Shown here one piece after another: positions 1 through 18,356 of a stretch of 21,832 nucleotides of DNA. Source of the DNA: a virus (Duplodnaviria > Heunggongvirae > Uroviricota > Caudoviricetes). Positions within the stretch are counted from its first letter, which is position 1, and each line of letters starts with the position of its first letter. The DNA is taken from IMG/VR virus record IMGVR_UViG_2778261247_000008; one strand, written 5' to 3'. The notes under the pieces were generated by a model. That model was given only the letters and a program-made list of their open reading frames with translations, was not told the DNA's origin and searched no databases. The position numbers were made by a program, and so were the translations under genes.

Positions 1-755
1 CCAAATTTAAGGTACTGCTCCTCCCCGCAGTGCGGGCAGGCAACATGAAAACGCATAAAATGCGGGGATTCACTGGCAGCACGCTCAATCTGGCAGGTGC
101 CTCTCACTTTGGGCGTGGAGCCACGGATGGACTTTGGCCAGACCGAGCCTTCAATACGCTTGTCGCCCAGGAACGTCGGAGAGCCTTCCTGTTCAATATC
201 ATCATCAAAGGCAGCAAGTTCATCATAACCCGCCACATCCACTGACTTTTCACGGTAGTTTTTTGCCGCTTTACCGCCCAGGCACCAGAAGCCACGCCCA
301 TTGGTGAAACGCTTCATAGTGAGCGTGTTATCCCGGTGCTTTTTGCCATACCACGGGGCCAGCGCCAGCAGCGACGGAATATCACGGATGGTCGGCTCAA
401 CGTGGGTTTTCATAAAGTTTTCGGCATCGCCATCCGTCGGCAACCAGATAAGGGTGTTACGCTGCTTATGCTCTATGAAGTAGGCATAAACACCCAGCAG
501 CATTTTGGAATAACCAACACGGGCAGACTTCACCACATTCACCTCGCGGATGTAGTCGCTGCCCATCGCATTCATGATGGCACGCTGAAAGGGCAGTGTT
601 TCCCAGCGCCCTTCCTGGTATGCGGATTCTTTCGGGAGATAGTAATTGGCATCCGCCCATTCAACGGCGGTCTGTGGCTCCGGCCTGAACAGGGCACGAA
701 GCCCGGCGCGGACAAAATGCCGCAGCCTGTCAACCTGACTGTTCGATATATTCAC
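1..755 (-). CDS. A: terminase large subunit (lambda gpA-like), N-terminal ~251 codons; gene continues beyond window start
   Basis: Minus-strand translation starts at a GTG overlapping the Nu1 3' end (V/M-N-I-S-N-S-Q-V-D-R-L-R-H-F-V-R-A-G-L...) and is still open at position 1 (...H-F-M-R-F-H-V-A-C-P-H-C-G-E-E-Q-Y-L-K-F-G), matching lambda gpA as recalled. Absent from the ORF track because it runs off the edge. Start coordinate +/-1. Confidence 0.88.
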   Translation of the reverse strand, partial: MNISNSQVDRLRHFVRAGLRALFRPEPQTAVEWADANYYLPKESAYQEGRWETLPFQRAIMNAMGSDYIREVNVVKSARVGYSKMLLGVYAYFIEHKQRNTLIWLPTDGDAENFMKTHVEPTIRDIPSLLALAPWYGKKHRDNTLTMKRFTNGRGFWCLGGKAAKNYREKSVDVAGYDELAAFDDDIEQEGSPTFLGDKRIEGSVWPKSIRGSTPKVRGTCQIERAASESPHFMRFHVACPHCGEEQYLKF

Positions 756-1275
756 TCAGCAACCCCGGTATTAGTTCATCCAGCGCGGCTGCTTTGTTCA
801 TGGCTTTGATGATATCCCGCTTCAGGAAATCAATATGCCGGTTATCCAGCTCAGGAAAACGTCGCTGCACCGACAGAGGAATACCGTCGAGAATACTGGA
901 TATTTCCCTTGCTATACGCGACAGCACGAAAGTACAGAATGCGGTTTCCACCACTTCAGCCGATTCTTTGGCATTTTTCAGTTCTTGCGCCGTCGCCTGA
1001 GCACGAGTCAGGCGATGGCGCTCAAATTCAAGTGTTCCGGGGTGAAGATCTGCCTCGCTGGCCAGCCGTAATTCTTCAACCTCCCGGCGCAGCTTTTCGT
1101 TCTCAATTTCAGCATCCCTTTCGGCATACCATTTTATGACGGCGGCAGAGTCATAAAGCACCTCATTACCCTTTCCACCGCCTCGCAGAACGGGCATTCC
1201 CTGCTCCTGCCAGTTCTGAATGGTACGGATACTCGCACCGAAAATGTCAGCCAGCTGCTTTTTGTTGACTTCCAT
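730..1275 (-). CDS. nu1: terminase small subunit (lambda Nu1-like)
   Basis: 181-aa ORF MEVNKKQLADIFGASIRTIQNWQEQGMPVLRGGGKGNEVLYDSAAVIKWY..., near-identical to lambda Nu1 as recalled (winged-HTH N-terminus); overlaps the A start as in lambda. Confidence 0.9.
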   Translation of the reverse strand: MEVNKKQLADIFGASIRTIQNWQEQGMPVLRGGGKGNEVLYDSAAVIKWYAERDAEIENEKLRREVEELRLASEADLHPGTLEFERHRLTRAQATAQELKNAKESAEVVETAFCTFVLSRIAREISSILDGIPLSVQRRFPELDNRHIDFLKRDIIKAMNKAAALDELIPGLLSEYIEQSG

Positions 1276-1279
1276 TGTT

Positions 1280-1464
1280 CATTCCACGGACAAAAACAGA
1301 GAAAGGAAACGACAGAGGCCAAAAGGCCTGTTTTCAGCACCTGTCGTTTCCTTTCTTTTCAGGGGGTGTTTTAAATAAAAACATTAAGTTACGGAGAAGA
1401 AGAACGGAAACGCCTTAAACCGGAAAATTTTCATAAATAGCGAAAACCCGCGCGCCTTCCGCCC
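1280..1464 (-). other. cos region: cosB-like terminase binding sites plus candidate cosN at about 1453..1464
   Basis: Minus-strand reading CGCGGGTTTTCGCTATTTATGAAAATTTTCCGGTTTAAGGCGTTTCCGTTCTTCTTC...GAAAGGAAACGACAGGTGCTGAAAA... is nearly identical to the lambda cosB segment preceding Nu1 as recalled. The 12 nt immediately upstream (GGGCGGAAGGCG) occupy the position of the lambda cohesive end GGGCGGCGACCT. Confidence 0.6.
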
Positions 1465-1529
1465 CGTAGCCTGCCGGATCGCCGGAAAGGACCCGCAAAG
1501 GTGAGAATAATTATCACTTGCATTAATAT

Positions 1530-1706
1530 CCAGCTTCTTCCACCATCGCACCGGACGGGCGACTATGAGGGACAAAACCGCGCACCATAAACGCGGTAAA
1601 AACCCGGTGTGCATCGTTTTTGATTATTTCCGCACACTCGCGCAGAAGGAATTCCCCGTCGGGCTACGGTCATGGTTAATGCGGAAATACGGCGACGATG
1701 CAGCGC
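1530..1706. repeat. direct repeat copy A (~175 bp, ~90% identical to copy B)
   Basis: Aligns with 2481..2656 from ...TTCTTCCACC..ATGAGGGACAAA.. through CGCGGTAAAAACCCGGTGTGCATCGTTTTTGATTATTTCCGCACACTCGCGCAGA.GGA.TTCCCCGTCGGGCTACGGTCATGGTTAATGCGGAAATACGGCGACGATGCAGCGC. Contains the internal inverted repeat ATTTCCGCA/TGCGGAAAT. Confidence 0.8.
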
Positions 1707-1826
1707 ATGATGTGTCAGGCTTGAATACCTTTATCCGTTAAAAGGGATATCAGTTAAGTTATCCCGTGCAGGGTATAAGCCATTATCAAAGCCACTCAGT
1801 AGCGAATGGCTTTTGTAATGGACTAT

Positions 1827-2423
1827 TTAATTAGTGATGCTGCGTGGCTTCATACAAATTTCAGAAATATGATTCTTTTCGTCCAAATGATGCTGGACAT
1901 CATTTTTATCATCACTCAACAACTCTGCTGTTAATACAATCCCTGCTGTCTCAGATTTCCAGGAAATGCTGATATCCTGATCATCTGCATCAACATCATA
2001 TTTTATCGAGTAAGGACTAAAGCTACGTCCAACGAACGCATCATTTACCAGTACACGCCCACCCTGTCTGACCTGAAAGTCAACGCGCCCTGAAAGCTGA
2101 TTTGCTGTTACAAGCAATGCCTTTTTTCTTTTTGTTTTATTGCTCATTGCCACCAACTGTTCAGCCATCTCTCTTGTCACACTACCAGAAACTCTTTCTT
2201 GAATTTTCACAGAAAATTTTCTGGATGTAGTAGCATCGACATTAAAAAATCTGGATGTCATCAGGCAGTTATTAACAATTGGCATCAGCTCACTTACGAT
2301 TGTAAAAAATTCCCGGTAAAGCTCATTTTGCTTTTCAACACACAGCTTTCCACAATCGTCCAGCTTACGCTCAAGAGCACTTAATCTTTCCATTATTGAA
2401 TTAATTTTTTGCAACTCTTTCAT
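1827..2423 (-). CDS. hypothetical protein (198 aa), bracketed by the two direct repeats
   Basis: ATG at 2421..2423 preceded by AGGAGG about 8 nt upstream (MKELQKINSIMERLSALERKLDD...). The longer track ORF 1827..2684 only extends to a GTG inside a palindrome. Confidence 0.5.
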   Translation of the reverse strand: MKELQKINSIMERLSALERKLDDCGKLCVEKQNELYREFFTIVSELMPIVNNCLMTSRFFNVDATTSRKFSVKIQERVSGSVTREMAEQLVAMSNKTKRKKALLVTANQLSGRVDFQVRQGGRVLVNDAFVGRSFSPYSIKYDVDADDQDISISWKSETAGIVLTAELLSDDKNDVQHHLDEKNHISEICMKPRSITN

Positions 2424-2445
2424 CAAAACCTCCTGACAAAGATAC

Positions 2446-2465
2446 CGTGCGACCACGGTCGCACG
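2446..2465. other. sopC-like palindrome (candidate partition centromere / SopB-ParB binding site)
   Basis: CGTGCGACC-AC-GGTCGCACG, perfect 9-bp arms with 2-bp spacer. Core TGCGACCACGGTCGCA differs from the F-plasmid sopC repeat TGGGACCACGGTCCCA (as recalled) at one symmetric position. Confidence 0.55.
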
Positions 2466-2480
2466 CTCCTGAATACATGC

Positions 2481-2656
2481 CCTGTTTCTTCCACCCTCGC
2501 ACAGGACTGGCGAGCATGAGGGACAAACCCGCGAATCATTAGCGCGGTAAAAACCCGGTGTGCATCGTTTTTGATTATTTCCGCACACTCGCGCAGAGGA
2601 GTTCCCCGTCGGGCTACGGTCATGGTTAATGCGGAAATACGGCGACGATGCAGCGC
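2481..2656. repeat. direct repeat copy B (~175 bp)
   Basis: See copy A. Copy B is bracketed by the sopC-like palindromes at 2446..2465 and 2666..2685. Confidence 0.8.
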
Positions 2657-2665
2657 GGTATTTAA

Positions 2666-2685
2666 TGTGCGACCACGGTCGCACA
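2666..2685. other. sopC-like palindrome (candidate partition centromere site)
   Basis: TGTGCGACC-AC-GGTCGCACA, perfect 9-bp arms. Confidence 0.55.
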
Positions 2686-2703: not shown

Positions 2704-3015
2704 TTATGCTACAGAGGAACAAGCTGGCGGGTAATTCAGCGTAGTGAATACCGGCATCTCCATCTTGTATGCGTAATGATACTCAGCAGTTGCTCCAGCA
2801 GACGCTTTCCAGCCAGGAAGCATCAAAATAGCATCAGCACAACGAAGCATTGCAAAGCAAATATCCATGTATTCACGTTGTGTCAGACCATTAGGCAAAG
2901 TGGCTGGATTCAAGACAGAGTGACCATGTCGTGACAAACGATCTGCCTCTTTATTAAAGGCGTCACGATTAAAGTTCTCATATCCAGTCATTGGCCCGGC
3001 AATATAAATTTTCAT
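2704..3015 (-). CDS. DUF4406-like protein (nucleoside 2-deoxyribosyltransferase-like fold)
   Basis: 103-aa ORF MKIYIAGPMTGYENFNRDAFNKEADRLSRHGHSVLNPATL...AILMLPGWKASAGATAEY..MPVF, matching the recalled DUF4406 pattern (MKIY.AGP.TG ... V.NP ... LPGW..S.GA). Confidence 0.6.
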   Translation of the reverse strand: MKIYIAGPMTGYENFNRDAFNKEADRLSRHGHSVLNPATLPNGLTQREYMDICFAMLRCADAILMLPGWKASAGATAEYHYAYKMEMPVFTTLNYPPACSSVA

Positions 3016-3056: not shown

Positions 3057-3524
3057 TTAATTCGGGCATTGCGTCTTGATGTATTCCTGAAGCGTTCTCA
3101 GTGCTGTCTGGTCTCTGATGATTCCGTCCCGGATACCGAGAACGTTTCGTCCAGCAACTGGAGAGAGTTCGACGGTGGCATCATTGCCCATGCCGGAGGC
3201 GCTGGAGGTTTCGGCTGAGGATGGCACAGAGCATTTTCCTTTGACGAGCACCCGACCACCATTATCAAGCTTGCGCCGAAGAGCATCATTTTCAGCTTTC
3301 GCATCAGCCAACTCCTTCGTGTATTTTGCATCGAGCGCAGCAACATCACGCTGACGCTGCTGCATGTCAGCGATGGTGGCGGTCGCCTGCTTCAGCTCAC
3401 TGACTTTTTTATCACGCTGTTCTTTGTAGGCGATGGCGTTATCACGGTAATGATTAACAGCCCACGACAGGCAGACGATGATGCAGATAACCAGTGCGGA
3501 GATAATTGCGGTTACTCTGCTCAT
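3057..3524 (-). CDS. Rz: i-spanin Rz
   Basis: From internal ATG: [37 protein letters not shown]..., near-identical to the lambda Rz N-terminus as recalled. N-terminal TM anchor; ATGA overlap with the endolysin stop. Confidence 0.85.
3098..3304 (-). CDS. Rz1: o-spanin Rz1 (lipoprotein embedded in Rz, +1 frame)
   Basis: [21 protein letters not shown]... with lipobox (VVGC) and proline-rich stretch [16 protein letters not shown]. Start taken at the Met matching lambda Rz1 MLKLKMML; track ORF 3098..3349 includes an upstream extension. Confidence 0.7.
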
Positions 3525-4021
3525 TGCTGCCCCCACAAACAGACTTCACGCTCAATCTCACGGCGAGTCATCAGCCCTTTCCATTGCTTACCGCCAGCAT
3601 ATGTCCAGCGACGTAGTTGATCACATGCACCTTTGATATCGCCCTGGTTGATTTTGCGAAGAAGTGTCGATGTTCTGAAATTGCCTGCACCCACGTTGTA
3701 AACGAACGAGTAAAGAGCACCACGCGTTGTTTCCGGTATATCGACTTTGATGTACGGGTTAATTTGTCTGGCGACAGTAGCAAGGTCTTTATTCAGGAGA
3801 GCTTTGCATTCTGCTTCGGTATACGTTTTACCGAGCATAATGTCTTTTCCTGTATGCCCGTAACATACAGTCCATACACCAACGATGTCTTTGTAGGGGT
3901 TATGTCTCACACCTTCCAGACCATCGTTGCCGCTCGGACCAGAGATGAGCACAGATGCTATGGCAATAGCCCCGCCACCAATAGCAGTTGCGACAGCTTT
4001 GCGTAATGATGACTGCATCAT
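3521..4021 (-). CDS. R: SAR endolysin (phage 21 R-type lysozyme)
   Basis: 166 aa with N-terminal signal-anchor-release segment ([20 protein letters not shown]) followed by a lysozyme domain; near-identical to phage 21 R as recalled. Confidence 0.88.
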
Positions 4022-4385: not shown

Positions 4386-5507
4386 TTACTCAAATAACTT
4401 TTTCACTTCATCAACTGTCTGAAGATAACGTTCACCCTCAATCTCAATACCGATTGCCTGACGACCTAACTTCAGCGCGGCTTTAATAGTAGAGCCTGAT
4501 CCCATAAAGAAATCGGCAACGATATCTCCGGGGCGGGAACTACTTTTTATAATATGTTCCATCATCGCTGCAGGTTTTTCACATGGGTGCTTGCCAGGAT
4601 AATATTGCACAGGAGGAAACTCCCATACATCGGTATAAGGTACATCAGCAGTAACATGAAATGGGCGGCGCAAATTTTCATACTGAGCCTTCAAATCATC
4701 ATACTGCTTCTTTACTTCCTCATAACGCAATTTCAGATCGCTATAACGCTTTTCATGTTCTGAATAATCAACATTAAAAGGATATGGACACGGGACACCG
4801 AGTGAATCTGCCTTCCTGCGAAATAATTCGCATAGTTTATTAAAATCACTTAATGATGGAAGCCGCCACTGCGAATAAGAAAACCAGTGCGAACACATCT
4901 GCTTTCCTGTTGCTGAATTAATGTCTGCGGCTGATATATCTAACTGACGGCGAGCCAGCGAAAAAGCATCAATTAGTGGAGAAAAAATATTTTTTCTTAA
5001 ATCTGCACATTTTGAAGCATAACCTGACTGACCTTTAGCATAACCTGACGCGCCGTAATGCTCTGCAAATAATATTCTTTCAGTGGCAGGAAAATAAGCC
5101 CTTAAACTTTCTTTATGACAACCGCGCCACATACCACTGGGTTTAGCCCAAATGATATGGTTCAGAACATTGAAACGGTCGCGAGTTAATAATTCAATTT
5201 TTGACGCAAGGCGAGAGCCGGTAAACATATACAGGCTGCCATTAGGGGCCAATATCCGCCAAAATTCTGCCAAAAATTCATCAATCCACCCCAAAAAGTC
5301 AGCATCGCTATCCCACTGGTTATCCCATGCGTTAGCCTTTACGCCGAAGTATGGTGGGTCTGTTGCAATCAAATTGACCGAGTTATCAGGGATGGTTTTG
5401 ATAAATTGCAGAGAATCTGCGCAAACGAGTTGCGCGCCATGAATATTAGTGGTTTTGAACATAGCTATTATTTTTTTGCCTGGGTAAGCTAACCCGGCGA
5501 TGCGCAT
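4386..5507 (-). CDS. orphan DNA methyltransferase (beta-class N6-adenine/N4-cytosine, DPPY motif)
   Basis: Motif IV ATDPPYF near the N-terminus, AdoMet motif I DFFMGSGST near the C-terminus, coiled-coil middle. No adjacent restriction endonuclease gene. True start may be the internal ATG at 5460..5462 (MFKTTNIHG...). Confidence 0.85.
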   Translation of the reverse strand: MRIAGLAYPGKKIIAMFKTTNIHGAQLVCADSLQFIKTIPDNSVNLIATDPPYFGVKANAWDNQWDSDADFLGWIDEFLAEFWRILAPNGSLYMFTGSRLASKIELLTRDRFNVLNHIIWAKPSGMWRGCHKESLRAYFPATERILFAEHYGASGYAKGQSGYASKCADLRKNIFSPLIDAFSLARRQLDISAADINSATGKQMCSHWFSYSQWRLPSLSDFNKLCELFRRKADSLGVPCPYPFNVDYSEHEKRYSDLKLRYEEVKKQYDDLKAQYENLRRPFHVTADVPYTDVWEFPPVQYYPGKHPCEKPAAMMEHIIKSSSRPGDIVADFFMGSGSTIKAALKLGRQAIGIEIEGERYLQTVDEVKKLFE

Positions 5508-5704: not shown

Positions 5705-5726
5705 CTGTGCGACCACGGTCGCACAG
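5705..5726. other. sopC-like palindrome (candidate centromere site), immediately upstream of the candidate late promoter
   Basis: CTGTGCGACC-AC-GGTCGCACAG, 10-bp perfect arms. Confidence 0.55.
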
Positions 5727-10079: not shown

Positions 10080-10380
10080 TTTCTTGTGCGACCACGGTCG
10101 CACCCTCTCTGATTTCCAAGTAACGCTTAATCCAAAGATTTTCTATATGCTTATTACCTGGCTGATTTGATAAATACCAATCGGCAATTACAGACTGCTT
10201 ATTACTATCTGGTCGTGTCCTGTAACCACAAGTTGGACACCAGATAACATATTCATTTCTTACCCCCGAATACCTTAATTCCGGCTTCGACGGTTTCCTG
10301 AACATAACTTGTTTACAAAGGCAGAATGGCACTTCCTGCCCGATGGCGTTTGATGATTTCACTGCGCTTCTCCGCCGCAT
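10060..10380 (-). CDS. hypothetical Cys-containing small protein (zinc-ribbon-like), boundaries uncertain
   Basis: FCLC...(22)...CPTCG pattern; the C-terminal tail is read through the palindrome and may not be real. Confidence 0.3.
   Translation of the reverse strand: MRRRSAVKSSNAIGQEVPFCLCKQVMFRKPSKPELRYSGVRNEYVIWCPTCGYRTRPDSNKQSVIADWYLSNQPGNKHIENLWIKRYLEIREGATVVAQENENNAI
10085..10102. other. sopC-like palindrome (candidate centromere site)
   Basis: GTGCGACC-AC-GGTCGCAC, 8-bp perfect arms. Confidence 0.5.
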
Positions 10381-11325: not shown

Positions 11326-11922
11326 ATGAAAACACGAGGCGAACGACTGAAAGCACGCCGTTTAGAGATGAAGCTGACGTTGCGAGAAGTTGCTGAGGCT
11401 GTCGATATCTCTATTGCAGGCGTCCAAAACTTAGAACGTGGCGACGTAATGCCGTCACTGGAGATAGGTATTGCCCTGGCTAAATGCTTACGCAAGCCAG
11501 TGCATTGGGTGCTGTATGGGACAGAATATGACCCTGATCGCATTCCTGTTATTGGCACAACTGAAAGTGGACCTGATGAAGAGTGGAAGCCAGGACAGGT
11601 TCCAAATACTGAGCGATTCCTGCCATTCATCAGCCAGCGCAATACTGTTTATGCGTTAACTATCAGCAATCTGGCGCAGGGAAACTATCAGCCAGGCGAT
11701 TTTCTCCTGGTCGATTCTGCGCTGGAACTGGTTCCCGGCGAGGATGTTCTGGTTCGTGATACTGCAGGAAATATCACCATCCAGCGCCTGGCCCGTTTTG
11801 ATGATGAAAATTACTATCTGGACGGAACAAATTCACAACGCGCCATCTTCAGGAAAAGCGATCTTGAATTTGTTCACCAAATAGTCGGAACGATCAAATC
11901 ATTCATGGTTGAGGGTAGATGA
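11326..11922 (+). CDS. cB: prophage repressor (CI/CB-like: N-terminal XRE HTH plus C-terminal LexA/CI-like dimerization domain)
   Basis: 198 aa; HTH LTLREVAEAVDISIAGVQNLERG; C-terminal segment aligns with the lambda CI C-terminal domain as recalled (PGDFLLVD...ITIQRLARF versus CI ...FTFKKLIRD). Confidence 0.75.
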   Translation: MKTRGERLKARRLEMKLTLREVAEAVDISIAGVQNLERGDVMPSLEIGIALAKCLRKPVHWVLYGTEYDPDRIPVIGTTESGPDEEWKPGQVPNTERFLPFISQRNTVYALTISNLAQGNYQPGDFLLVDSALELVPGEDVLVRDTAGNITIQRLARFDDENYYLDGTNSQRAIFRKSDLEFVHQIVGTIKSFMVEGR

Positions 11923-12167: not shown

Positions 12168-15100
12168 ATGACATTAAACGATTTCTATGCGGATCGCTTT
12201 GGCAGCGATCCGTTCTCGCTAATTGAAGCAGCACGGGATGAACTAACCGAGCTGGCACAGATGGCTGGTATCAACTGGTCTGCCTGTTCCGACAACATCC
12301 AACTCAACCCTCGCGGGGGTGTTGAGCGTTACTCTTCATACAATAAAACATCTCCAGAAGCTCTCGAAAAGAGCCTCAAAGGACGCGTAGAAATTTACTC
12401 CCGGCTGGAACACAGCAAAGGGATTGATTACCCGTTCATTAACTTCGTCCATAAAGGCAGCGATGCTGGCTCATGGAGCGGTTTCTCCTTCCTGTTTTCT
12501 GAATATCGCCGTGAGCAACAACGGAATAATGCGACCGTGGTCGCACAACCGGAAGAAGAACGGGCAAGAATAGAACGTCAGGCCGAAGCACGTCGTCGCC
12601 GTGAAGAACAAAAACGAATTAATGACCTGAAAAACAACCAAATGGACCATGAACGTTTGCTGGGATGGCTGGCATTCCACAGCGCGTGGGAACATGCTCC
12701 TGCAGAAGACGGCTCATGGCCATATGCGATTAAAAAAGGTATTCGTGACGTTTTTAATTCGTGTGATGTGCGTCGCGTGACCAGTCACGACAGCGCAAAA
12801 TGGAGCAGGGGGCCAACCACGTATATGGCTATCCCTCTGGCTCACCTGGACGGTCGTTACGATGGTCGTATTGTGGGTTGGCAGCGAATCGACAAACAAG
12901 GTGGAAAATACCAGACCAGCGCCGTAACCAGCGGCGATTTCGTCGGTGCCTGCTTTGTTATCGGTGAGCTAAAAGGGGCGCAAAACATCGCTGTTACAGA
13001 AGGTTTTGCTACTGGTGCATCCATCTGGCTTGCCACGAAAAAAGATAAACGCTTTGACGCTGTGGTTGTCGCTGTATCCGCTAATAACATGGTTCATGTT
13101 GTGGAACAACTGGTAAACATGTACCCGGCGGCAAAAATCACCTGCGCACTGGATAATGACCGGAAATCAGCCACAGAAGGAAAAGGGAATACCGGCCTGC
13201 GGACTGGCTATGAAATCTTATCGAAATTCAACGATGTCCGCTGCGTCTATCCAACTTTTGAAGACGATCCGCAAATGGAGTGCAGTGACTTCAACGACCT
13301 GCACAAACTGCGTGGACTTCGTGAAACAGCACGTCAACTGTTTGCAACTGCAAACCGCCTGAAAACCGGCACTGATTTGCTATCTCTGACGCTCAACCGC
13401 CTGAAGACAATTAAGCGGGATAACCGTCGTACTTTTGCCAAAGAGCTGCTGAGAGCGGTGGATATTGGCATGCTAACCTGTCCGGTTCCTAACAGTCCGT
13501 CAGACTTATTTAACATGTTCTGCATCGTTCTGCGTGAAATGGGGCTGGAAAATATCTATCGCGCTACGGTAAAAGACCACATTGCCCGTCGCCTGAATAA
13601 AAAGTGCCGTATTGCCCAGGCTCCGCGCTCATTCAGCGAACGCATAACTGATCCCAATAAACGTCCTCAACATATCACCTATAAGCGTTTTGAAACTTCG
13701 GTAATGACCGATGACGTCCTGAAGTATGTGCAATCACTACAGGGGATAGTCATCGTTCGTGCTGGTATGGGTTCCGGCAAATCTACTGGATTGTTACGAC
13801 CTTTAATGCATAGCTCAGAACGTGGTATCTCTGTTGCTCACCGTGTTTCCCTTATTGGTGGCCTGTGGGAAATGATGACAGAAGGAAAAGGTGTAAAAGC
13901 CGATATCCTGCACTATCAGGACCCTGGCTATCAGGAAATGGCTCCATACGCCAGTAAACTGACCATCTGCATAAACTCGATTGTTAAAAACTGCTGGCAA
14001 CCGTTGATGCGCCAGCACGACTATTTTGGCTTTGACGAGGCCACGCAAGGGCTACGTGCCGTTCTTTCCGGTCGGGCTATGGAAAACCCGGTGGCTGTAT
14101 TCAATACGTTAATCGACGCGCTGGCCAGAACGGAACAACACCCAATAATGGTGGATGCTGATGCGAACGATCTGCTGGTTGACCTGGCTGAACTGGCTAT
14201 GAAACGCCGTGAAGAACTAGGTTTACCGGCATGGCTGCAGATCCACGTAATTGAATTACCTGTTGATGTTCGCAACCGCGAAACAGGTGAGCCAATCCGG
14301 GTTTTTTATACAGAAAAAGATCGCATTATGACCGAGGTGGTGAAAGCTGTATCGGATGGCGAAAAAATCATGTTGGCCACCGACAGCTCCACCTTTGCAG
14401 AAGATGTGACAGCCACCCTGAGAATGCATTTTCCTGGTAAGAAATTTCTGTGTGTAAACCAGAAAAACAAACCAGAGCCAGAAGTTGAAGCATTTACCAA
14501 TCAACCGAAAAAGATGGTCAAAAAATACGACGGCCTGATTTATAGCCCGTCTATTTCATCCGGTGTGTCGATTGAGCAAAAACATTTTGACCGTCATTTC
14601 GGCATGTTCTGTGGTGAAGTTGTACCCAGCGACGCAGTGCAAATGCTACGCCGCGACCGTACAGCAAAAGAATTTATTATCGGCTTTGATAAAGCTCGCG
14701 CAAAACGTGAAACTGACCCGCAAAAAATAGAACGAGCATTCGCCCAGGCATTGCTTGCTACCGCAGGCATGAACGGTGAACTGACGGATGTCGTTTTCGA
14801 TGGCGACCGTATATCAATGGGGGTGGCCAATACCGACTTTACCAGGATGAAAATTAAAGCAGCCGCAATTGAAGCGTCTGCGCGTAACGACTACGCCAGC
14901 AACATGATCTGCATCATGCACAGCGACGGTTATAAGGTATCGCCGCTGGCCACCGATTATGCTGCGAATGATATCGGTAAAGATCTGCGTAAAGAAGCGC
15001 GGGATATTGTGTGGGAACAGACACTGGATCTGCATCTCAATACAGAAACTCCACAAGAATCAGAGCGTGAAGAACTGCTAAAAAAACGCGCGCTGACGCT

Positions 15101-18079: not shown

Positions 18080-18109
18080 TTGACGTGTGCGTCGTTTTGA
18101 CGGTAAAGT
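18080..18109 (+). promoter_or_regulatory. candidate promoter of the ant-operon leader
   Basis: TTGACG, 18-nt spacer, TAAAGT. Confidence 0.3.
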
Positions 18110-18116
18110 TACTCCG

Positions 18117-18190
18117 CTGCGGCAAATTCCGCAGCCGGGCGTGAGAACCCGGATAAACGAAGCGCACAACACGCGCCAGCGTGTTTTTTT
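18117..18190 (+). ncRNA. candidate c4-like small regulatory RNA / attenuator transcript in the ant-operon leader
   Basis: Two stem-loops (CTGCGG-CAAATT-CCGCAG; CCGGG-CGTGAGAA-CCCGG) followed by an intrinsic terminator (AACACGC-GCCA-GCGTGTT plus T-run). Loop GUGAGAA is complementary to UUCUCAC at 18275..18281 in the downstream leader. Confidence 0.35.
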
Positions 18191-18356
18191 GTGTGTATAT
18201 ACCTGCGCATATCCGATTTATGGTGGCTCAGGCGGGGCTGACTTCGGTCAGGCCGGTTTCTTCGTTTGCCGGTATTCTCACCCCCGCTTGGGCTACCACC
18301 ATTCAAGAGCGTGAGAACTCTGGTGGTAGCACGACCAATTAAACGGAGTGCATACC

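Follow-up and report, generated by a model that had tools for sequence, protein, structure and literature searches.

The DNA considered here, referred to below as the window, is a stretch of 21,832 nucleotides recorded in IMG/VR as IMGVR_UViG_2778261247_000008, a Caudoviricetes sequence that is 100% identical, in reverse orientation, to Escherichia phage YDC107_1 (CP025712.1), an N15-like linear phage-plasmid of the genus Ravinvirus. All of the late genes lie on the minus strand, so that the late transcript crosses from right to left a region beside cos in which two direct repeats, here called copies A and B, enclose a single open reading frame (ORF). Along that transcript the order is DNA methylase, holin, lysozyme, Rz, a DUF4406 gene, an ORF of 198 amino acids (aa), cos, and the terminase genes (Table 1), and the DUF4406 gene is the final conserved late-region gene ahead of the repeats. 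The view developed here is that the repeats are probably copies of a conserved non-coding element of the late operon, apparently a folded RNA, which came to lie here twice when a gene cassette was brought in by recombination.

Table 1. Features of the late region around the two repeats, with positions in the window and the predicted helices (P) of each copy
Feature	Position	Strand	Remarks
Terminase small subunit Nu1	730-1275	-	First of the packaging genes that follow the element along the late transcript
cos region	1290-1500	.	Nu1-binding-type inverted repeat at 1300-1356
Element copy A	1519-1706	-	Covariance-model match 1521-1714, 226 bits, E 1.5e-79
Copy A P4	1554-1550/1534-1530	-
Copy A P3	1595-1593/1581-1579	-	Variable hairpin
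Copy A P2b	1647-1645/1639-1637	-
Copy A P2a	1663-1661/1656-1654	-
Copy A P2	1689-1679/1635-1625	-
Copy A P1	1701-1695/1617-1611	-
Extension, 120 nt	1707-1826	-	Between the cargo stop codon and copy A
Cargo ORF, 198 aa	1827-2423	-	Probable truncated remnant of a two-gene cargo
Palindrome GTGCGACCACGGTCGCAC	2447-2464	.	Cargo-side edge is the putative left junction of the cassette insertion
Element copy B	2470-2656	-	Covariance-model match 2472-2664, 216 bits
Copy B P4	2505-2501/2485-2481	-	CCUGU/ACAGG, compensatory relative to copy A
Copy B P3	2546-2544/2532-2530	-
Copy B P2	2639-2629/2586-2576	-
Copy B P1	2651-2645/2568-2562	-
Second palindrome GTGCGACCACGGTCGCAC	2667-2684	.	19 nt after the DUF4406 gene
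DUF4406 / nucleoside 2-deoxyribosyltransferase-like gene	2704-3015	-	Homologue of N15 gene 57 and phiKO2 gp58
Rz	3057-3536	-
Lysozyme	3521-4021	-
DNA methylase	4386-5507	-	Late gene

The repeats were first pointed out in an earlier note on this DNA, which described copies about 90% identical and some 951 bp apart, beginning at 1530 and 2481. The identity and the spacing stand: repeat finding gave 87% identity for 1519-1646/2470-2597 and 98% for a second block, 1647-1706/2597-2656, with offsets of 951 and 950 that reflect a single 1-nt indel between the copies, and BLAST aligned copy A with copy B at 93% over 172 nt (E=7e-70). The extents have to be revised, as the unit reaches about 10 nt further, to 1519 and 2470. 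The 198-aa ORF is indeed the sole ORF between the copies, and the two symmetrical features described at that time are found in both: a 9-bp inverted repeat (ATTTCCGCA at 1627-1635 and TGCGGAAAT at 1680-1688 in copy A) and a stem, CCGCG (1578-1582) with CGCGG (1592-1596), that is kept while its loop differs between the copies. With a covariance model, exactly two copies are found in the window, both on the minus strand.

The repeated unit, of about 180 nt and hereafter called the element, is in no way peculiar to this phage-plasmid. A search of phage records gave 427 matches with the region and 424 with the 188-nt unit alone, and in these 424 records, which include Stx1 and Stx2 phages, mEp460, Ayreon, 434, HK629 and lambda, the element occurs once per record. 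In lambda it lies at about 46,869-47,032, and together with the bor promoter region it fills the gap between bor and lambdap78; in Escherichia coli K-12 it is found within the DLP12 prophage, between borD and ybcV (about 579,000-579,182), where no RNA has been annotated. Among complete E. coli genomes, 4,587 of 5,426 (about 85%) carry the element, at 11,756 places, with a median of two and a maximum of 11 per genome, and in 11 of the 12 records listed there is no annotated feature beneath the match. The earlier note had proposed a BLASTN search for copy number and context, and had reasoned that absence of the unit from related genomes, with no conserved structure, would tell against it; the unit proved to be widespread and single-copy in phages, and its base pairing, as described below, is kept.

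A partial form has a distribution of its own, as about 590 mostly conjugative plasmids of the ColV type in PLSDB carry the 5' half only. In pAPEC-1 (L506, NC_011980.1) this half spans 1501-1596, at 86.5% identity, about 170 nt from iss, and because it adjoins iss, which is a bor homologue, it looks like a relic of a lambda-like segment that reached from Rz to bor. Interruptions of the element are also encountered: in L125 (4155-5655) an IS629, 96% identical to that of Stx2 phage 1717, sits inside the variable hairpin, and in L376 (3010-4465) an insertion of about 1.27 kb breaks the element.

The position of the element was compared in 134 loci, oriented on the element for the counting of neighbours. 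Upstream and on the same strand lie Rz (117 of 117 loci, at a median of 505 nt) and lysozyme (92 of 92); downstream and likewise on the same strand lie Nu1 (63 of 63), the lambda-type large terminase subunit TerL (60 of 60), or the 933W-type small terminase subunit TerS (8 of 8, 111 nt away). The genes in between vary, and comprise bor (opposite strand, 39 loci), Rha, KilA-N, small ORFs, and YbcV, which in 38 loci is on the opposite strand and ends 7-10 nt from the element. This pattern of neighbours indicates that the element marks the junction of the lysis and packaging modules, and it does so in siphoviruses, in HK97-like phages with HNH/TerS, in 933W-like podoviruses and in phage-plasmids. 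The limits of the element are equally clear: the 5' domain has a mean pairwise identity of 0.89, the variable middle one of 0.60 and the last hairpin one of 0.84, and in the eight or nine bases outside the value falls to 0.41-0.53. The element is sharply bounded and locked to the orientation of the late transcript.

The evidence that carries the RNA interpretation comes from base pairing. RNAalifold, run on 66 unique copies (a later set held 141 unique cores), predicted 32 pairs, which would form a 7-bp helix closing the 5' domain (P1); an 11-bp helix (P2) whose core is the 9-bp inverted repeat and which contains two small hairpins (P2a and P2b); a variable hairpin that corresponds to the CCGCG/CGCGG stem (P3); and a terminal hairpin with a conserved GGAAGAAAC loop (P4). 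Across the alignment 99.0% of cells are paired, against 34-60% when the partners are slid by 1-3 columns, and none of 500 shuffles reached the covariation score observed. In the 141 unique sequences 523 G.U cells were counted as opposed to 20 A.C cells, and seven pairs appear as two or more Watson-Crick types; the covarying pairs include 17-106 and 31-90 (both UA/UG/CG), 36-85 (CG/UG/GC) and 169-191 (GC/GU/UA). Targeted scans for uncompensated variants in invariant pairs returned 0 and 1 matches, too few to weigh on either side.

Every G.U pair on one strand is a C.A mismatch on the opposite strand, and the excess of one over the other could in principle stem from a mutation bias. The polymorphism in unpaired columns is balanced, however (C/T in 16 versus 13 columns, G/A in 25 versus 25), which argues that the asymmetry reflects selection. 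Paired columns are also more often invariant than unpaired ones (75% versus 42%), and the consensus folding energy is -33.45 kcal/mol for the late strand versus -17.36 for the antisense strand, or -26.5 versus -2.0 (sense versus antisense) in the larger set. In the 933W and Chlobot types the sequence of P3 has been exchanged for an unrelated one, and a hairpin still forms at that spot. Judging by these comparisons the helices are kept only on the strand of the late transcript, which is the generic signature of a structured RNA; a structured RNA was one of the options offered in the earlier note, with covariation as the check, and the seven covarying pairs and the strand-specific pairing speak for it.

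No coding function could be attached to the element, and it fits none of the known classes to which it was compared. A 58-aa ORF on the plus strand (1565-1741), antisense over the element, is annotated as a 'hypothetical protein' in PhiR46_1 and other GenBank records, and corresponds to 2786-2962 in L003. It was rejected: in copy B it has an in-frame stop and a 1-nt deletion, in lambda and several lineages its frame is broken by 1-nt indels within conserved blocks, and it matched no PHROG family. These indels and stops among homologues mark the call as spurious. A scan for promoters and terminators found a promoter-like site next to neither copy, and no terminator that is conserved: the 3' hairpin has no U-run after it, and P3 of copy A, which is terminator-like, is not kept among homologues. 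Rfam 15 gave no match in 1280-2760 at the gathering threshold, and at E<=10 its matches there were noise alone, all far under threshold. A transposable element or a miniature inverted-repeat transposable element was set aside since the ends (TGCGCTG... and ...ACCGGA) are not inverted repeats and all full copies occupy one syntenic slot in one orientation; in L125 the element has itself been hit by IS629. The known prophage small RNAs (sRNAs) AgvB, AsxR, PasA, PasC and PasD were likewise set aside, as they lie at another locus and their Rfam models do not match here, and resemblances to ops/RfaH, boxA/boxB and Chi, judged by eye, were imperfect and not conserved. Nothing at this locus appears in a 2025 review of phage sRNAs, and a literature search by element sequence, with the older literature outside its reach, retrieved unrelated primers only. 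The element is apparently previously undescribed.

How the window came to hold two copies is bound up with the palindromes that bracket copy B. Ravin and Lane reportedly described, in 1999, dispersed centromere sites of N15, IR1-IR4, that are SopB-binding palindromes. The N15 sites follow the pattern GTGCGACCNNGGTCGCAC, an 18-bp palindrome (PMC7205306 Table 4), and the GTGCGACCACGGTCGCAC sites that start at 2447, 2667, 5707 and 10086 in the window equal N15 IR1/IR4 letter for letter according to the same table. Those at 5707-5724 and 10086-10103 are exact copies elsewhere in the window, a further one at 12529-12546 has one mismatch, and in shuffled sequence the expected number of matches is 0. 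The palindromes around copy B, called sopC-like in the earlier note, are by this identity putative N15-type SopB centromere sites.

Copies A and B share 97% identity over the 5' domain but 82% over the 3' domain. The 3' half of copy B belongs to a different subtype from that of copy A, and its 3' domain is 98.7% identical to that of the single copy in L122; because it resembles this single-copy relative more than it resembles copy A, the two copies are, as far as their sequences tell, of different origins and not simple duplicates. In L122 and L096 a B-type element is followed by TATTCAGGAGC, a palindrome, about 75 nt and then cos. The window matches both as far as the far edge of the palindrome at 2447-2464, where the ribosome-binding site of the cargo gene follows, and the homology resumes at TTGCGGGTCCTTTCCGG just ahead of cos; by this comparison the cos region would be the right junction of an inserted cassette. 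The 120-nt extension beside copy A is common to Ayreon, Stx2 phage 1717, PhiR70_1 and Chlobot, is absent from copy B, and contains a hairpin (about 1779-1806) whose counterpart is annotated as a terminator in Ayreon. The order gene, extension, element is the usual one in Ayreon, Stx2 phage 1717 and others.

A plausible sequence of events starts from an ancestor resembling L122 and L096, with the order element (B type), centromere palindrome, cos. A cassette from another phage, made up of two cargo genes, the 120-nt extension and element A, would have been joined between the palindrome and cos; the 5' halves of the copies would later have been homogenised by gene conversion, and an 826-bp deletion would have truncated the cargo. 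Gene conversion between the 5' halves is suggested by a rare U-A variant in P2 that both copies share and by the copy A of the IMG/VR contig L014, which carries the 1-nt deletion of copy B. The duplication would be a by-product of cassette insertion, in line with the insertion scar that the earlier note had listed as an option, and the homology breaks exactly at the edge of the palindrome.

The same note had predicted the loss of the gene and one palindrome through recombination between the copies, and had suggested a search for deletion variants. Such a variant exists in nature: the plasmid pZ1323HEC0355-3 (NZ_CP148365.1, 45,924 bp) has the order DUF4406 gene, palindrome, one element, cos, Nu1, and its element is an A x B hybrid, with the left flank and the 1-nt deletion of B and the 3' half of A. 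It has neither cargo, nor extension, nor the palindrome at 2447, and the copies, to judge from this hybrid, are substrates for homologous recombination. A chimera of another kind is seen in PA11 (L252 3001-3181), in which the 5' half is identical to that of lambda (L007) and travels with bor, and the 3' half is identical to the 933W/POCJ13 (L253) type and travels with terS, which places a recombination joint inside the element.

The cargo itself has been reduced. In the 198-aa ORF some 195 N-terminal residues of a 286-aa protein (phrog_2571) run on into the very 3' end of a 149-aa gene (phrog_3054), through an 826-bp deletion at a 7-bp microhomology (about 1839-1845; compared with L003 3067-3892) that removed the C-terminal third of the first and nearly all of the second. 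PhiR46_1 and L027 have 826 bp more and retain both genes intact; in L027 copy A is truncated beside yet another palindrome. Both PHROG families are of unknown function. The cargo proteins matched no Pfam family and gave insignificant PADLOC matches (E 0.01-0.05), no large protein search having been made; a role in anti-phage defence was dropped as no PADLOC or Pfam defence family was matched.

The element probably acts as RNA, inside the Q-antiterminated late transcript. Q-modified polymerase ignores terminators, and no RNA ends arise from terminators within an antiterminated transcript. Since the element lacks its own transcription signals and terminators go unheeded, two roles are favoured: it could be a cis-acting signal for processing or stability that sets off the lysis part of the message from the morphogenesis part, or else a compact, stable small RNA that is excised from the transcript, its 5' domain being closed by P1. 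As mechanisms these are put forward tentatively, and we regard them as rather doubtful. The unpaired nucleotides are strongly conserved, which suggests a partner, either protein or RNA, and the absence of the element from several lambdoid phages suggests an accessory role. The broader proposal, possible but short of probable, is that lambda and most E. coli genomes encode a previously undescribed functional RNA that derives from the late transcript and has an accessory role. Host RNases might cut it out as a stable RNA, it might process itself, or it might bind a host protein, and it might serve in host takeover, anti-defence or the control of late mRNA and not in a core lytic step.

Several observations weigh against this interpretation. 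The distance from the element to the terminase genes is not constant, being about 1.6 kb to Nu1 in lambda and 111 nt to terS in the 933W type, and nothing downstream stands out as a constant target. The covariance model did not find the element in N15, HK97, phi80, Gifsy-2 or phiKO2, and in L089 it is truncated; its absence from several lambdoid phages implies that it is dispensable, which suggests an accessory role more than a core cis-regulatory one. When the element is compared with dinucleotide shuffles, neither strand has a remarkable minimum free energy (MFE) z-score (-2 to 0). The sequences are of low diversity (effective number 1.64), so that covariation rests on about seven pairs and is judged by statistics that ignore kinship, and pair 35-86 is U.C in 15 sequences. 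Each of the rival explanations nevertheless accounts for less of the evidence than a structured RNA does.

The first of these rivals holds that the element is a conserved DNA 'linker' at a module boundary that has no RNA function and is kept by homologous recombination among lambdoid phages and prophages, the duplication in the window being one more such exchange. In its favour, the element has mosaic joints at its edge and within it (PA11), copies A and B have been homogenised in their 5' halves, with a conversion tract in L014, recombination between A and B occurs in nature, and the MFE z-scores lack significance. A linker has no need, however, of pairing on one strand only, with its 523 G.U and 20 A.C cells and no mutation bias, of unrelated hairpins that replace P3 at the same place, of paired columns that are more invariant than unpaired ones, or of an orientation that is 100% locked to the late transcript. 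We consider this explanation unlikely.

It is improbable, too, that the element is double-stranded regulatory DNA, that is, a promoter, operator or upstream element for opposite-strand morons such as bor/iss and ybcV/lambdap78. Proximity speaks for it, since in the 39 loci with bor that gene is 177 nt away on the opposite strand and in 38 loci YbcV ends within a few nucleotides; moreover, HK629 has an annotated sigma-70 promoter directed toward bor at the bor-proximal edge of the element (L251 1514-1540), and the ColV plasmids keep the iss-proximal half only. Against it, a TGTTTAGGGTTTGTTTAA sequence in lambda and DLP12 (L130, K-12, ~3440-3470) that looks like a PhoP box lies outside the element, between it and bor; its position, together with that of the HK629 promoter, indicates that a bor control region abuts the element. 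Most copies, furthermore, have neither bor nor ybcV beside them, and in the window, Ayreon and Stx2 phage 1717 they are flanked by unrelated genes that share their strand. Nor would inverted repeats that served as the site of a dimeric protein accept G.T on one strand and yet exclude A.C.

A third alternative, that of an independent gene for a trans-acting sRNA with its own promoter and terminator, like AgvB, AsxR and the Pas sRNAs, draws on the very strong conservation of loop and junction sequences and on the richness of lambdoid prophages in trans-acting sRNAs (PMC4104026; bioRxiv 10.64898/2026.05.13.724894). Little probability attaches to it, as the upstream flank is unconserved (0.53 identity), the scan found a promoter-like site by neither copy, the 3' hairpin lacks a U-run, and the terminator-like P3 is confined to copy A and not conserved; the known prophage sRNAs are located near PR', upstream of the lysis genes, and the element is not matched by their Rfam models.

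An assembly error, or a very recent tandem duplication without wider significance, can be dismissed almost outright as the source of the repeat, despite one apparent duplication that is an artefact of assembly (L429, below), because the two-copy arrangement recurs in PhiR46_1, in the IMG/VR contigs L014 and L027, and in at least eight independent closed RefSeq plasmids (45-75 kb), which also disposes of the recent assembly duplication feared in the earlier note, and because the copies differ by 18% in their 3' halves, each of which resembles a different outside relative. In L429 (6658-7315) a full copy and a 3' part recur with a 475-bp period; it was rejected as a second duplicated case since an N stands at the junction by cos-proximal sequence and the neighbouring gene is repeated exactly, and it is most likely a wrap-around artefact of assembly.

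The broader interest of the element lies in its having stayed unannotated in lambda, DLP12, the Stx phages and some 85% of complete E. coli genomes, although few genetic systems are better studied than lambda and its relatives. If it is a functional RNA, it would be a new player in late gene expression or in the phage-host interaction of the medically important Stx phages, and would deserve an RNA family of its own. It also accounts for a spurious 'hypothetical protein' call that keeps recurring and for the lambda-derived sequence beside the iss serum-survival gene of ColV plasmids, and it marks a hotspot at which phages and phage-plasmids gain and lose cargo by homologous recombination.

Other features of the window touch on its relationships. 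From alignment with lambda GGGCGGCGACCT we infer that the 12-nt cohesive end is GGGCGGAAGGCG, at 1453-1464 on the minus strand. The overhang is GGGCGGCGACCT in L122 and L014 as well as in lambda, so that close relatives with the same repeats, such as L014, differ from the window in their cos overhang. Elsewhere in the window, 18103-18303 (plus strand) has Rfam matches above the gathering threshold to C4 antisense RNA (82 bits), isrK (68 bits) and the c4 a1/b1 target (49 bits), and on these matches it is a P1/P7-type antisense immunity module within an N15-like phage-plasmid.

The centromere palindromes of the window find their closest parallel in the sites of N15 and phiKO2, which are likewise dispersed, intergenic in the late region, and include one just after the DUF4406 gene; the position of the palindrome at 2667 matches that of the annotated partition site after phiKO2 gp58. 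In phiKO2 an annotated partition site lies 20 nt before the putative late promoter. N15 differs in having four sites in its whole genome as against five in 21.8 kb here, of which two are just 220 bp apart, around a non-coding element. The palindromes are separate from the 180-nt repeat, which mostly occurs in phages that are not plasmids. Degenerate SopB palindromes (e.g. GTGTGACTGTGGTCGCAAG) are found directly 3' of the element in L081, L054, L025 and L028, which appear to be ordinary lambda-like prophages; they sit between the element and cos, where L122 and L096 carry an intact site.

Among non-coding RNAs, the prophage sRNAs AgvB/AsxR, PasA-D, Esr41 and STnc100 of pathogenic E. coli resemble the element in having fixed positions in lambdoid prophages and several copies per genome. 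They differ in location, in that AgvB/AsxR, PasA, PasC and PasD lie between Q/PR' and the holin gene and the element lies downstream of Rz, and in size, in that AgvB and AsxR are 51-60 nt long with mapped 5' ends and the element is about 180 nt long and lacks its own transcription signals. Cis-acting structured RNAs of lambdoid transcripts include HK022 put, the boxB of lambda nut, the sib retroregulator and the cIII thermosensor. Like the element they are non-coding, lie within a long antiterminated operon, and have conserved hairpins that function in one orientation; they share with it neither sequence nor Rfam model similarity, and the element is larger (about 180 nt, with several helices) and accessory. 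To our knowledge no cis-acting RNA has been described in the late operon after the lysis genes. P1 c4 and the N15 CA RNA are small RNAs processed from longer phage transcripts, and they come close to the element in being compact domains with a terminal closing helix, embedded in a longer transcript without a promoter or terminator of their own; they are not homologous to it, and the element has no known antisense target.

At the level of genome organisation, boundary or 'linker' sequences at the junctions of mosaic lambdoid modules are said to have been postulated by Susskind and Botstein and by Juhala et al. in 2000. The element recalls them in lying at the junction of lysis and packaging genes, in having recombination joints at and within it, and in its association with the gain and loss of cargo. 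It departs from them in the strand-specific conservation of its base pairs, for which a pure recombination linker would have no need.

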